Source: a virus
DNA length: 25,304 bases
Reading direction: 5' to 3' (one strand)
IMG/VR virus record: IMGVR_UViG_3300027814_000008
Part shown: piece by piece, positions 320-23,987 of the stretch
How positions within the stretch are numbered: position 1 is the stretch's first letter
Layout of the letters: each line of letters opens with the position of its first letter
Notes under the pieces: generated by a model
Database searches by the model: none
What the model was told of the DNA's origin: nothing
Seen by the model: the letters and a program-made list of their open reading frames with translations, nothing else
Translations under genes and position numbers: made by a program

Positions 320-935
320 AGAAATAACAAATGATTTAGAGATTATACCGGAATATGAATTAACAAAAGAGACTGTGAAGATTATGATATGTGATGATGT
401 AAAACGTCCTGGGGTGGATAGTCTCATGAACTGGTTAGAAAATGAGAGTGATTATTTTGTATGTCCAGCTTCTTCCAGAGGTAGACATGGATCTCGATTC
501 GGAGGATTAATGCTTCACGGTCTGTCAGTATTTAAAAATTTGTATGATCTTAACAGACGAAAAGAATTAGGTTTAAGAAGAAGCAGTATGGTTGTTATGG
601 GATTATTCCATGACATCTGTAAAGCTAATTCTTATCAGTGGGAAGATAAATGGGTAAAAGTTGATGGAGAGTGGAAACTTCAGAAGAAAGTTGTATACAG
701 TGGAGATTTTCCTTGTGGTCATGGGGAGAAATCAGTTATAATCCTTCAGAAGTTTATTCCACTTACAGATCCAGAGATTATGGCTATTAGATGGCATATG
801 GGGTGGTTAGACCAAGGAGTTCATGGATATCCAGGACAACACAATTATAATGCTGCTAAAAAACAGTATATTGAAATTGGTGCTCTTATGATAGCTGATA
901 TTGAAGCTGCTGCTATAGATGAGTTTGATAACTGA
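312..935 (+). CDS. HD-domain phosphohydrolase-like protein
   Basis: Ordered metal-ligand pattern typical of HD superfamily: ...RGRH..., LMLHG, GLFHDI (HD doublet), CGHGE, IRWHMG, then Asp; ATGA overlap with upstream ORF. Confidence 0.5.
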   Translation: MIKEITNDLEIIPEYELTKETVKIMICDDVKRPGVDSLMNWLENESDYFVCPASSRGRHGSRFGGLMLHGLSVFKNLYDLNRRKELGLRRSSMVVMGLFHDICKANSYQWEDKWVKVDGEWKLQKKVVYSGDFPCGHGEKSVIILQKFIPLTDPEIMAIRWHMGWLDQGVHGYPGQHNYNAAKKQYIEIGALMIADIEAAAIDEFDN

Positions 936-973
936 AGATTTTTTTACTATATGCCGATATAATAAATAGGGGG
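933..973 (+). promoter_or_regulatory. conserved promoter-like element, copy 1 (TGAAG-N16-GCCGATATAATAAATAGGGGG)
   Basis: TGAAGATTTTTTTACTATATGCCGATATAATAAATAGGGGG directly upstream of GTG start 979. Confidence 0.55.
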
Positions 974-978
974 TTAGA

Positions 979-1644
979 GTGAGGATTTTAATAAGTGGAG
1001 GTATTGGAATTGGAAAAAGTACCTTCTGTGATAGACTAAACAAAGAATTTGGCTACCCAATTCACAAGACGGGTAGACATGCAAATAATATTGAGCATTT
1101 TTCTTTTGGGCTTAGACAGTCTTTTATGGAACTGTTAAGCTTGGAAGCTATGTTTGATACCAAATATCATAATTGTGTTTTAGATAGATGGTTAATAGAT
1201 TTTCTAATGTGGCAATATGAGGATGAATCTTTTAACGTGGGAGAGTTGCTTGATCGAATAGCTCTTGATGCTATAGATAAAGACTCTGATGTGTTTTTAG
1301 TTTCTCCTAATCCACCTTTGAATTTTTATTTGGATAATATTAACGATTTTAGAGGTGACTACATTAGGTGGTCTGCATTTAGTGATAAATATATTGCTTA
1401 TCTCAGGGAGAAATATAATGGGGATACTCCTCATCATATCTTAGATACAGAGGTTTTAAGCTTTATAAAAGATTGGACTGATAATCTTATTGATTTTACT
1501 GTCAGTTGGTTAAAGATGAATGAACTTAACTATATCTATGTAGAGCTATCTGATGTTGGAGACTTAAATTGGAGACAAGTTTGGCAAGATGCCTATATGG
1601 ATAGGTTAAGGAGTGTTATTAATGAAACGGGCAGAGTTGATTAA
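979..1644 (+). CDS. P-loop nucleoside/nucleotide kinase (dNK/TMPK-like)
   Basis: GTG start preceded by GGGGG SD; Walker A ISGGIGIGKST; later VLDRWLIDFLMWQY resembling DR(Y/H)..S..AYQ motif of dNMP/deoxynucleoside kinases. Confidence 0.55.
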   Translation: MRILISGGIGIGKSTFCDRLNKEFGYPIHKTGRHANNIEHFSFGLRQSFMELLSLEAMFDTKYHNCVLDRWLIDFLMWQYEDESFNVGELLDRIALDAIDKDSDVFLVSPNPPLNFYLDNINDFRGDYIRWSAFSDKYIAYLREKYNGDTPHHILDTEVLSFIKDWTDNLIDFTVSWLKMNELNYIYVELSDVGDLNWRQVWQDAYMDRLRSVINETGRVD

Positions 1645-1891
1645 AAAGATTGGAGAAATTGTTGAGGATATAAGCTCTACCCTGGATGAAAAAAGGTCAA
1701 GACAGTATATTAGTCAAATAACAAATGATAAACTGGATTCTCAAGCTAAACATGAGTTAATAAGTAGACTTGCAGAGATTGATATCTCTTTAGAAGATGC
1801 TATGTATGAGCTTGAGGATGCTCTTGAAGATAGACCAGATAATGAAGAGTTGAATGAACTTCTTTCATTTTTGGATTATTATTATGATTGA
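1622..1891 (+). CDS. hypothetical acidic protein
   Basis: ORF track gives 1613 (GTG); ATG at 1622 has AAGGAG 9 nt upstream; Asp/Glu-rich, helical-looking. Confidence 0.5.
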   Translation: MKRAELIKKIGEIVEDISSTLDEKRSRQYISQITNDKLDSQAKHELISRLAEIDISLEDAMYELEDALEDRPDNEELNELLSFLDYYYD

Positions 1892-1991
1892 TAATATTTT
1901 ATTTAGTATTTTTATAATAGTTGCTCCATGTATATTAGTTTATGTATTTATATGGACATTTAAACAGGCTAAGAAGGAATCTAAGAAGTAA

Positions 1992-21932: not shown

Positions 21933-22631
21933 GTGGATAATGAGAGTAATTTTGGGGAACTTGTAGTAAAGAGCTTAAGAAAGCTTGGTTTTGAAACATG
22001 GCAAGAAGTTTCTTTTCATGGATCATCCATAGATATTGTAGGAAAGATAAACAATATTTATTGTATTTTTGAATTAAAGATGACTCTAAATGATGGTGTT
22101 TTAGAACAGGTACATAGAACTATACATTATGGTGATTATAGTTGTATTATTATCCCGTGGAGAAAAAAATATCATATTAATAAGGTAAAAAGTCTATTTT
22201 TAAACTATTATGGGATTGGACTTATAGAGATAAAAAATGAGGCAAAGACCTTAGAATGTTTTAGGGAACCTTCTGAATGGGGTATGGCCTTAAACCTGTT
22301 TGAGGGAAAGGATACAATCAAGTTTATCAATTGGAATTTTGCTATTGTTAAACAACCAAAAAAGAAGGATAAAAGCGTTTCTATAGAAGAGTTTTTATTT
22401 GATGACCAAAAAGATTGTGTAGCTGGATCAACTTCGGGGACTGTTATGACTCCCTTCAAAAGAAGCTGCAATTTGATATATGAGTATCTACAGGAGAACC
22501 CTGGGGCCTCTAAGAAAGAGGTTTGGAATACTCTAAATGGTTTTTTACATTGGAGTTCATATGCTTCAATGTGTGCCAGTTTTAGAAACTATTCACATGT
22601 TGACGAGATTAAAAGGATAAAGTGGAAATGA
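21933..22631 (+). CDS. putative PD-(D/E)xK nuclease-fold protein
   Basis: GTG start after TTGGAGGAAAAAA; N-terminal LRKLGFETWQEVSFHGSSIDIVGKINNIYCIFELKMT has the hydrophobic-D ... E-x-K core (IDIV...FELK) seen in Hjc/Mrr-like endonucleases. Confidence 0.4.
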   Translation: MDNESNFGELVVKSLRKLGFETWQEVSFHGSSIDIVGKINNIYCIFELKMTLNDGVLEQVHRTIHYGDYSCIIIPWRKKYHINKVKSLFLNYYGIGLIEIKNEAKTLECFREPSEWGMALNLFEGKDTIKFINWNFAIVKQPKKKDKSVSIEEFLFDDQKDCVAGSTSGTVMTPFKRSCNLIYEYLQENPGASKKEVWNTLNGFLHWSSYASMCASFRNYSHVDEIKRIKWK

Positions 22632-22783
22632 AACATACTGAAGAAATATTAACTGAGATAAATAATGTAATAAAAAATGAGCCTTTAACTGAAGGTGAAA
22701 AATTTAAACTGTTGATGGAACTTCTCTTGGATATAAGAGAATTATTGGATACTATAGACTCAAGACTTTGCAATATGGAGTAA
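22628..22783 (+). CDS. hypothetical small helical protein (51 aa, below ORF-track cutoff)
   Basis: ATGA overlap with upstream stop; open frame MKHTEEILTEINNVIKNEPLTEGEKFKLLMELLLDIRELLDTIDSRLCNME; fills the 155-nt gap before 22787. Confidence 0.4.
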   Translation: MKHTEEILTEINNVIKNEPLTEGEKFKLLMELLLDIRELLDTIDSRLCNME

Positions 22784-22786
22784 ATT

Positions 22787-23866
22787 ATGATTATATTACC
22801 AGATGGATTCAAAATGATTTTTAAATTTATTTCTGGGAGTCATCTCTATGGGACATCTACTCCTGAATCTGATGTTGATGAAAGGGGTATTTTTATCCCT
22901 ACTGAGGAATATTTCTATGGGTTCTTAAATAGGGTAGAACAGCACCAGGATAAAGAGACTGATACGGTCTATTATAACATGATTAAATTCTTGGAATTAG
23001 CCCTGGAAAACAACCCGAACATTATTGAATTTCTTTTTGTTCCTGAGGACAAATGGTTATTATCAACATCTGATTGGGAGACCATTATTGGGGGCAGAGA
23101 ATATTTTCTATCCAAGAAGGCCAGGTGGACGTTTTCAGGATATGCTCATTCCCAACTTAAGAGAATTCGTTTACATCGGGAATGGTTACTTAATCCACCT
23201 AAAAAGAAACCTGAGAGGAAAGATTTTGGATTGCCTAATGATCGATCTCTTATCAGTAAGGAACAAATAGGGGCCTTTAATGAACTGGTTGCTATGTACC
23301 TTAGGGATATAAGAGATTTTCATGAACTTCGTGAACAATTGGAGAATATGGAAGAGACTTATAGTTTTAAAAGAATGATTGACCAAACTAAGACTGATGA
23401 TCCAGTTTATTTTGCTGCTATTAAATCCATTGTTCCAGTTACCGATAACTTCCTGGAAGTTTTACAGAAGGAGAAGGGTTATCTTAGGGCTAAAAAGTAT
23501 TGGGATAATTATCAACAGTGGAAGAAAAATAGGAACCCTAAGAGGGCCATATTGGAAAAAAAGTATGGGTATGATACCAAACATGCCAGTCATTTAATTC
23601 GGTTGATGGAAGAGGGTAGAGAGTTGCTTATGGAGGGGAATATTACCTTTCCCTGTTTTAGTGCTGAACTCCAACTTGATATTAAGAATGGTAGATACTC
23701 TTTTGATGAATTATTGCAGAGTGTATCAGATTATGATGAAAAATTTGAAAAGTGGTATGATGAATCACCACTTCAATATTCACCAAATAAAGTTGAGGTA
23801 GACAGAATATGTGTGAAACTCGTAAAGAACCACCTACTCCTCCCAAACCACCTACAGGGAGAATAG
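22787..23866 (+). CDS. Pol-beta-superfamily nucleotidyltransferase (RlaP-like, RNA-ligase-associated)
   Basis: N-terminal FISGSHLYGTSTPESDVDERGIF = GS-x(n)-DxD minimal NTase signature, followed by a ~300-aa helical extension; neighbourhood contains RNA ligases and CCA enzyme. Confidence 0.5.
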   Translation: MIILPDGFKMIFKFISGSHLYGTSTPESDVDERGIFIPTEEYFYGFLNRVEQHQDKETDTVYYNMIKFLELALENNPNIIEFLFVPEDKWLLSTSDWETIIGGREYFLSKKARWTFSGYAHSQLKRIRLHREWLLNPPKKKPERKDFGLPNDRSLISKEQIGAFNELVAMYLRDIRDFHELREQLENMEETYSFKRMIDQTKTDDPVYFAAIKSIVPVTDNFLEVLQKEKGYLRAKKYWDNYQQWKKNRNPKRAILEKKYGYDTKHASHLIRLMEEGRELLMEGNITFPCFSAELQLDIKNGRYSFDELLQSVSDYDEKFEKWYDESPLQYSPNKVEVDRICVKLVKNHLLLPNHLQGE

Positions 23867-23947
23867 TGAGAGAGGGTGGTTTACCAGAACTATCTTTATC
23901 ACTTGTATTAGCTTTATTATTTTTTGTATGGATGTTATTTGGATAAT

Positions 23948-23987
23948 TGAAGATTTTTAGACAGAATACCAATAAATATATAAGGAG
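23948..23987 (+). promoter_or_regulatory. conserved promoter-like element, copy 5 (degenerate, CCAATA)
   Basis: TGAAGATTTTTAGACAGAATACCAATAAATATATAAGGAG upstream of 23994; same TGAAG-N16-CC(G>A)ATA spacing. Confidence 0.4.

Follow-up and report, generated by a model that had tools for sequence, protein, structure and literature searches.

Repeated CCGATA elements in a large uncultured phage, probable promoters of an alternative-sigma type

Known promoter classes and the CCGATA element

Promoters of the flagellar sigma factor FliA have the consensus TAAAGTTT-n11-GCCGATAA, and in E. coli single substitutions in the -35 box abolish or strongly reduce activity (PMC2859248). A sigma-28 promoter example from a spirochaete has CCGATAA (PMC9481697). 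Promoters of the extracytoplasmic function (ECF) type feature tGAAACnTTTt, with a -35-proximal T-tract at -30 to -26, a -10 of CGTA, CGTC, or CGAC, spacers of 14–17 bp, and close adherence to the consensus (PMC5758882). The element described here is a two-block repeat with the core CCGATA that is found five times in a 25,304-nucleotide stretch of viral DNA, IMG/VR record IMGVR_UViG_3300027814_000008 (the whole stretch is referred to as the window). The family comprises 12 copies in ~82 kb of the window phage and 6 gene-proximal copies in ~47 kb of a relative, phage B, for a total of ~130 kb surveyed. The repeats are very probably transcription promoters of a large uncultured phage. It is also probable, with less confidence, that they are recognized by the core RNA polymerase of a bacterium together with an alternative sigma factor, either of the sigma-28 (FliA/SigD) type or of a closely similar ECF type.

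The window copies read TGAAG(T/A)TT-n12-(G/A)CCGATA(A/T). The -10 of the element, (G/A)CCGATA(A/T), is the consensus of sigma-28 (FliA/SigD/WhiG) promoters in 17 of the 18 copies. The element additionally shares with these promoters the two blocks, the G at box position 5, the T-rich bases past the box, and the tight adherence to consensus that is typical for alternative-sigma promoters. There are also differences. Box position 2 is G and not A (TGAAG), or the box is the quite different TCGATCA, and TAAAG is present in none of the 18 copies. The spacer is n12 instead of n11 in 18/18 copies. TAAAG or TAAAC in the same +1 register was found by collection scans in a few unrelated sequences (L140, L151, L154), and this register may lie within the natural range. 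Lastly, instead of motility genes, the genes driven here are those for phage replication and RNA repair along with small early genes.

The likeness to ECF promoters of the B. subtilis SigW, SigX, and SigV kind consists of a TGAA-type -35 with a T-tract directly after it (here T at about -26 to -24), a CG-containing -10 (CGAC for SigX, CGAT here), and a distance, TGAAGW-N16-CGATA, inside the 14–17 bp spacer range. The hallmark AAC of the ECF -35 is, however, AAG, ATC, or ATT here, and the -10 runs on to CCGATAW, the signature of sigma-28 and not of ECF promoters. By function, the element is grouped with the alternative-sigma promoters, sigma-28 or ECF in kind, and it is not classed as a strict member of either family.

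Promoter classes for phage-encoded sigma factors include those of SPO1 gp28 and gp33/34 and of phiEco32 gp36, as well as the T4-type promoter/stem-loop cassettes (PeSLs). The element resembles these in being uniform, phage-specific, and repeated along co-directional gene blocks. As in PeSLs, one copy has a terminator hairpin upstream, and copies flank a segment of differing gene content. The consensus sequence is, however, unlike all of them, and a cognate sigma gene was not found in the ~130 kb. A literature search found neither a phage promoter with CCGATA nor a sigma-28-like phage promoter. Phage promoter families for alternative sigmas are well known; for the sigma-28 -10 combined with a shifted register and two -35 flavours, the literature searched gave no earlier description.

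Copies and anatomy of the element

A search of the window for TGAAG-N16-CCRATA gave 5 matches, all on the plus strand, compared to 0.04 ± 0.20 expected from 100 dinucleotide shuffles. Tolerance of one mismatch adds a single spurious match on the minus strand. The five copies are those listed in the preliminary description, and all are present with the fixed 16-nt spacer after TGAAG, the run of seven T in copies 1–3, and CCAATA in copy 5 that it had reported. The end of the CCGATA core is separated from the start codon by 19 nt in four of the five and by 23 nt in copy 3, with the start codons located at 979, 10819, 12801, 18832, and 23994. The remaining four CCGATA hexamers of the window (14852-, 18005, 23442, and 24677) lack the flanking features and are not copies. 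The features of the window are given below; transcription starts are predicted, SD is the Shine-Dalgarno sequence, ORF is an open reading frame, and MVP is the major vault protein.

933..973, plus strand: candidate promoter copy 1, upstream of the P-loop kinase gene 979-1644; box TGAAG 933-937, T-tract 939-945, -10 GCCGATAT 953-960, TAAATA 963-968, predicted start T967/A968, SD GGGGG 969-973
10737..10762, plus strand: intrinsic terminator with an 11-bp stem, 6 G-C pairs, and a T-rich tail, after the MVP-like gene 8268-10718
10773..10815, plus strand: candidate promoter copy 2, upstream of the Rnl1 gene 10819-11946; box 10773-10777, T-tract 10778-10784, -10 ACCGATAA 10793-10800, TAATTA 10802-10807, predicted start A10807, SD AAGGAGG 10807-10813
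12751..12792, plus strand: candidate promoter copy 3, upstream of an 88-amino-acid Cys-rich ORF 12801-13067 and the lysozyme gene 13079-13696; box 12751-12755, T-tract 12756-12762, -10 GCCGATAT 12771-12778, TAATTA 12781-12786, predicted start A12786, SD 12787-12792
18786..18826, plus strand: candidate promoter copy 4, upstream of the gene for a CCA-adding enzyme with an HD domain, 18832-20265; box 18786-18790 within ORF 18604-18804, no T-tract, -10 GCCGATAA 18806-18813, TAAATA 18815-18820, predicted start A18820, SD GGGAGG 18821-18826
23948..23987, plus strand: candidate promoter copy 5, upstream of an 85-amino-acid ORF 23994-24251 and then Rnl2 (from 24244); box 23948-23952, -10 ACCAATAA 23968-23975 (core G to A), TATATA 23977-23982, SD AGGAG 23983-23987

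The 5' half of copy 4 does lie inside the upstream coding sequence, as had been described, and the proposed position of copy 2 directly after a terminator was confirmed, as it starts 11 nt past the hairpin at 10737-10762. This is the sole strong intrinsic terminator of the window. Each promoter would head a co-directional operon, and since one strong terminator was found, most promoters probably supplement read-through and do not stand alone.

Overlapping contigs of the window phage were retrieved via identical proteins, and further copies were located by anchoring on CCGATA. The window-phage assembly, A2, is 61.3 kb continuous and the window sits in it at offset +33,056. A second window-phage region of 20.6 kb, L184, was taken from the 65-kb contig Ga0309835_100033, which was assigned to the window phage; its sample is shared with a 40-kb window-phage contig. 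Phage B, whose topoisomerase and helicase are 66–68% identical to those of the window phage, is covered over 26.8 kb and 20 kb. The copies found outside the window are as follows.

A2 offsets 9233, 10264, 13728, and 14957: additional window-phage copies upstream of the window
L184 positions 10605, 15058, and 19249: copies in the second region of the window phage
B positions 606, 1759, 2299, and 24228, and L187 positions 10841 and 14938: copies in phage B

In both phages the gene-proximal copies (18/18) share the strand of the gene that they closely precede. In the window phage, the genes heading their operons are those for HNH endonuclease, replication, RNA repair, and nucleotide metabolism along with many small genes. 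A position weight matrix (PWM) built from the five window copies gives unseen TGAAG-type copies 27–32 bits, compared to a shuffle maximum of ~20 (20 shuffles). The PWM scan for the motif inside genes that had been proposed as a check revealed no genic or antisense copies of comparable score in the ~130 kb. The co-regulated set of five genes or gene pairs that was originally suggested proved too narrow, since the window phage has at least 12 copies. One candidate was rejected: B:16139 (L006:4957) has TGAAG-N16-CCGATA at exact spacing inside an ORF, lacks the T-tract and the SD, scores below 14 bits, and is regarded as a chance or decayed match. About 340 nt downstream of L006:4957 there is a 205-nt ORF-free gap that is relatively G+C-rich (L006:5295-5499), for which an Rfam/tRNA search was negative.

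The anatomy of the element was derived from 18 aligned copies, with column scoring on 15 of them and positions counted from the first C of CCGATA. The upstream part features A at -23, Y-G-A-W-S at -21 to -17, and A at -16; the box G is found in 14/15 and the box A in 15/15 scored copies. The T-tract peaks at -13 to -11, with T at 80–93% per column, and is followed by an unconserved stretch. The core is preceded by T at -2 and G or A at -1 (G in 13 and A in 5 of the 18 copies). CCGATA itself is present in 17/18 copies, the exception being the CCAATA of copy 5, and is followed by A or T. Box and CCGATA are always 16 nt apart, with no conservation of the spacer sequence. After CCGATA there is A or TA and then R-T-A-W-W-T-A, of which the final T and A are invariant. 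This linker of 1–2 nt is the sole length variation within the element. In copy 1 (933-935, ORF 312-935) and in the phage B copy next to a tRNA gene (L006:13046-13048), the upstream gene uses the TGA of the box as its stop codon.

The SD was first described as fused to the element. In the window this holds, as RTAWWTA runs straight into the SD in 5/5 copies; as a property of the element it does not, since the SD and start codon are 15–35 nt further on in A2:14957, B:2299, B:606, L184:15058, and both L187 copies, where RTAWWTA is still locked to CCGATA. A consensus RNA structure of the aligned copies contains 0 pairs, and Rfam returned only a tRNA of phage B. Phage B copy B:24228 (L006:13046-13094) is directly ahead of that tRNA gene, L006:13096-13167 (Rfam 43.4 bits), and therefore the element works without a coding sequence. 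ARAGORN also calls this tRNA, with an unnamed anticodon and a 4-base 'gacg' loop, and the gene caller overlaid an 85-amino-acid ORF on it.

The TGAAG box likewise describes the window and not the family, in which CGAAG, CAAAG, TCGATCA, TCGATTA, and TTGATCA also occur in one register. The boxes among the 18 copies are TGAAG in 9, CAAAG or CGAAG in 3, and CGATC, CGATT, or TGATC in 6. Boxes of the TCGATCA type (TCGATCA, TCGATTA, TCGATTG, TTGATCA, and ACGATCA) are restricted to the first ~6 kb of the rightward gene block in both phages (A2: 10264, 13728, and 14957; B: 606, 1759, and 2299). YRAAG boxes (TGAAG, CGAAG, and CAAAG) are found in A2:9233, which is located at the divergent junction, and in all copies beyond the early stretch, those of the window among them. 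The regional segregation of the two flavours is conserved in both phages, and as a sequence pattern it suggests two functional sub-classes. The junction copy (L073:9212-9640, offset 9233) has a CAAAG box followed by ~370 nt without a convincing ORF, which may be a leader or a small RNA.

Candidate readers of the element

The copy ahead of the tRNA, the copies distant from an SD, and the lack of a consensus RNA structure argue for a transcription signal at the DNA level over a translation or RNA-processing signal. The usual discriminator of a promoter is 6–8 nt, and from this length the RNA start is predicted at the invariant T/A dinucleotide. A start at this dinucleotide places CCGATAW at ~-13 to -7, the box at ~-34 to -30, and the T-tract at ~-28 to -23, which is the two-element geometry of the sigma-70 family. 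The box at about -34 to -30 would be read by sigma region 4, the spacer would be bent by the T-tract at about -28 to -23, and GCCGATAW at -14 to -7 would be read by sigma regions 2/3. The AT-rich 5–6 nt after GCCGATAW would form the discriminator. For the window copies, mRNAs would start right at the SD with a leader of ~11–15 nt; elsewhere, leaders would be 25–45 nt or the product would be a tRNA. The initial proposal of a sigma-70-like promoter is supported as far as the -35/-10 geometry is concerned, and not in its housekeeping form.

The reader could be the flagellar sigma factor of the host, or a sigma factor encoded by the phage in the part of its genome that was not covered. Cultured phages encode FliA-like sigma factors, and a phage-encoded reader is therefore plausible. 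Several points weigh against an alternative sigma factor of this type. No sigma or RNA polymerase gene was found with Pfam and PHROGs on ORFs lacking annotation, precomputed Pfam tables for all retrieved contigs, and a tblastn search with E. coli FliA in ~82 kb of the window phage and ~47 kb of phage B; these sequences leave out ~86 kb of the 98-kb contig and the greater part of the second region's contig. The box is not the canonical TAAA of FliA promoters, the spacer exceeds the FliA consensus by 1 bp in every copy, and the TCGATCA flavour agrees with the FliA -35 at 1–2 of 5 positions. Additionally, several copies are located at the very start of an early-looking region, which would be odd for a minority host sigma unless it is delivered by the virion or these are not the earliest promoters. 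A more speculative extension, which is doubtful at present, is that the large phage runs most non-structural transcription via a sigma-28-type -10, borrowing the host flagellar sigma or using its own sigma-28-like factor. The two region-segregated -35 flavours (TCGATCA in the early ~6 kb, YRAAG elsewhere) would then be a temporal switch like sigma appropriation at T4 middle promoters.

Among the other readings, promoters for a non-sigma phage RNA polymerase, either single-subunit and T7-like or multisubunit as in jumbo phages and possibly carried in the virion, with a site ending in TA/GGGAGG, are unlikely. In their favour are the large genome (to which a 98-kb contig connects at 100% identity and a 65-kb contig was assigned), the failure to find a sigma gene in the ~130 kb, and a sequence that is near-invariant up to the putative start. 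The T7 promoter has TATA/GGGAGA at its start region, and TAAATA|GGGAGG of copy 4 resembles it. The element, however, consists of two blocks with 16 unconserved bases of fixed length between them. The variable linker of 1–2 nt between CCGATA and RTAWWTA is unlike the contiguous 17–23-bp promoters of phage polymerases and fits the sigma type, and a gene for such a polymerase was not found in the ~130 kb either.

A slightly less likely reading is that the repeats are ordinary early promoters for the host housekeeping sigma, with TTGAAG as the -35 and either a TATAAT-like hexamer in CCGATATAAT or TAAWTA as the -10. TATAAT does follow CCGA directly in copies 1 and 3 and in B:1759, some copies are at the start of the early-looking region, where the host holoenzyme must act first, and the early region has no other recurring promoter-like motif. 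The invariant bases are, however, CCGATA and not TATAAT, and most copies have TAAGTA or TAATTA at that place. TATAAT, where present, is 20 bp from the box compared to a range of 16–18 bp, and the TCGATCA boxes are unlike TTGACA. A scan with the housekeeping consensus flags none of the five window copies and shows no enrichment of such sites, with observed against shuffled counts of 57 vs 63.1 and 57 vs 56.3 (window) and 36 vs 33.6 (early region).

It is improbable that RTAWWTA alone constitutes a T4-type late promoter (TATAAATA with a gp55-like reader) and that CCGATA and the box are activator or repressor sites. Promoters of this class consist of one 8-bp element at -10, lack an upstream element, and drive late genes. 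The block agrees with TATAAATA at 5–8 of 8 positions, B:606 has a perfect TATAAATA, and the nearest cultured relatives of the helicase are from large Rhizobium phages and Vi1/Cba120-type phages. However, CCGATA holds far more information than the TAWWTA block, and the box is conserved as well. A start 6–7 nt past TAWWTA falls behind the SD in 5/5 window copies and would result in mRNAs without an SD. Profile searches detected no gp55, gp33, or sliding-clamp homologues, and the driven genes are HNH, replication, nucleotide-metabolism, and RNA-repair genes instead of late structural genes.

An RNA-level signal in a polycistronic mRNA, such as one for processing or an SD-linked operator or enhancer of translation, is very improbable. 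An SD adjoins every window copy, and the genes are co-directional, so the sequence is probably transcribed from upstream too; but conserved secondary structure is absent, one copy is ahead of a tRNA, several are 15–35 nt from the SD, and the fixed-length unconserved spacer with -35/-10 geometry is a feature of DNA recognition. An archaeal reading with a B recognition element (BRE) and TATA box was rejected, as the start would lie past the start codons and the lysozyme, SLT, and PagL-like genes indicate a bacterial host.

Conservation, source phage, and meaning

Two copies of the window phage have positional orthologs in phage B. A2:13728 and B:1759 are both ahead of an HNH endonuclease gene (48% protein identity), and A2:14957 and B:2299 are both ahead of the next gene (51% protein identity). 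Both pairs keep the box, the spacing, TGCCGATA, and RTAWWTA, with diverged spacer sequences. The other copies show no positional conservation, and copy 1 has no counterpart in phage B, where the flanking genes abut. Between a conserved 95/99-amino-acid gene and Rnl1 the two phages differ, with the MVP-like gene and the terminator in the window phage and a tRNA, small ORFs, and a PagL-like gene in phage B; a promoter copy is located on one or the other side of this variable segment. The spacers and outer flanks are unrelated among copies, which are therefore not recent duplications of a longer segment.

More distant relatives (L012-L014), whose helicases are 42–44% identical, do not have the CCGATA motif. 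They feature their own intergenic motif, (T)ATATATATTAAAT, right after stop codons (L012:7898-7925 and 16894-16920; L013:5241-5270 and 13712-13730), which may be a promoter class of their own. The element is lineage-specific, as these relatives lack it and carry ATATATATTAAAT instead. A scan of IMG/VR with the full window-type pattern gave zero matches, and a looser core pattern gave mostly chance matches and did recover two WOR8 contigs and a bridging contig. A strict pattern run against 185,579 species genomes gave two chance-like single matches and no family members.

The window phage is an uncultured phage with a G+C content of 33%, and no near match to it is present among 50,697 phage records (INPHARED). 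Its helicase is 35% identical to those of large Rhizobium phages and ~30% to those of Vi1/Cba120-type phages. Since the closest cultured phages reach only 30–35% helicase identity, no published transcript map applies. The scan for the motif core retrieved WOR8_10000141 (98 kb) and a bridging IMG/VR contig, which links the end of WOR8_10000141 to the left end of the window-phage assembly at 100% identity. On the 98-kb contig, genes for terminase and head protease occupy the minus strand as far as a divergent junction, past which all genes are rightward and continue through the window, where all credible genes are on the plus strand. The genome of the window phage is probably larger than 200 kb. 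Lysozyme, SLT, and PagL-like genes together with strong SD sequences suggest that the host is bacterial, probably diderm and SD-using. Contigs of different assemblies break at window ~22186-22320. Between contig L009 and the window there are 26 differences, and at least 20 of these fall within the initial ~130 nt of L009; most of the remaining overlap is identical. This suggests strain variation or a recombination boundary.

Several genes of the two phages were also noted. RNA-repair-type genes are clustered in the window: an HD phosphohydrolase (312-935), Rnl1 (10819-11946), the CCA-adding enzyme (18832-20265), a RlaP-like nucleotidyltransferase (22787-23866), and Rnl2 (24244-25304). All of these except RlaP (4/5) have a promoter copy either right ahead of them or one gene further upstream. 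The MVP-like protein (8268-10718) has 816 amino acids and matches the Major Vault Protein shoulder domain PF11978 with E = 4e-27, with weaker Vault_3 and Band_7/SPFH matches; its gene has no CCGATA promoter of its own and is missing at the orthologous place in phage B. The large subunit of ribonucleotide reductase has 1211 amino acids and an intein with an HNH domain in phage B (L187:5280-8915) and is an intein-free protein of 777 amino acids in the window phage (L184:6665-8998). L184:12426-12872, 10001-10582, and 998-1774 encode a SAM lyase, a ClpP-like protease, and a Gad2-family protein, which are candidate anti-defence or host-takeover genes. Copies L184:10605 and 15058 flank the SAM lyase gene cluster.

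As a regulatory signal, the element is genuine, useful, and moderately interesting. It maps out the transcription units of an uncultured lineage of phages with unusual cargo, namely a major-vault-protein homologue, Rnl1, Rnl2, a CCA-adding enzyme, and a RlaP-like nucleotidyltransferase, and it yields a precise 30-bp consensus that is usable for reporter or in vitro transcription predictions. The motif is specific enough to help assign metagenomic contigs, as it linked the 98-kb contig and indicated a second region on 65–75-kb contigs including Ga0309835_100033. Should a sigma-28/ECF-like factor encoded by the phage be the reader, this factor and its promoter would together make a compact orthogonal part for gene expression. 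If the reader is host FliA, the element would represent an uncommon dependence of a lytic phage on the motility sigma, and infection would be coupled to whether the host is motile.

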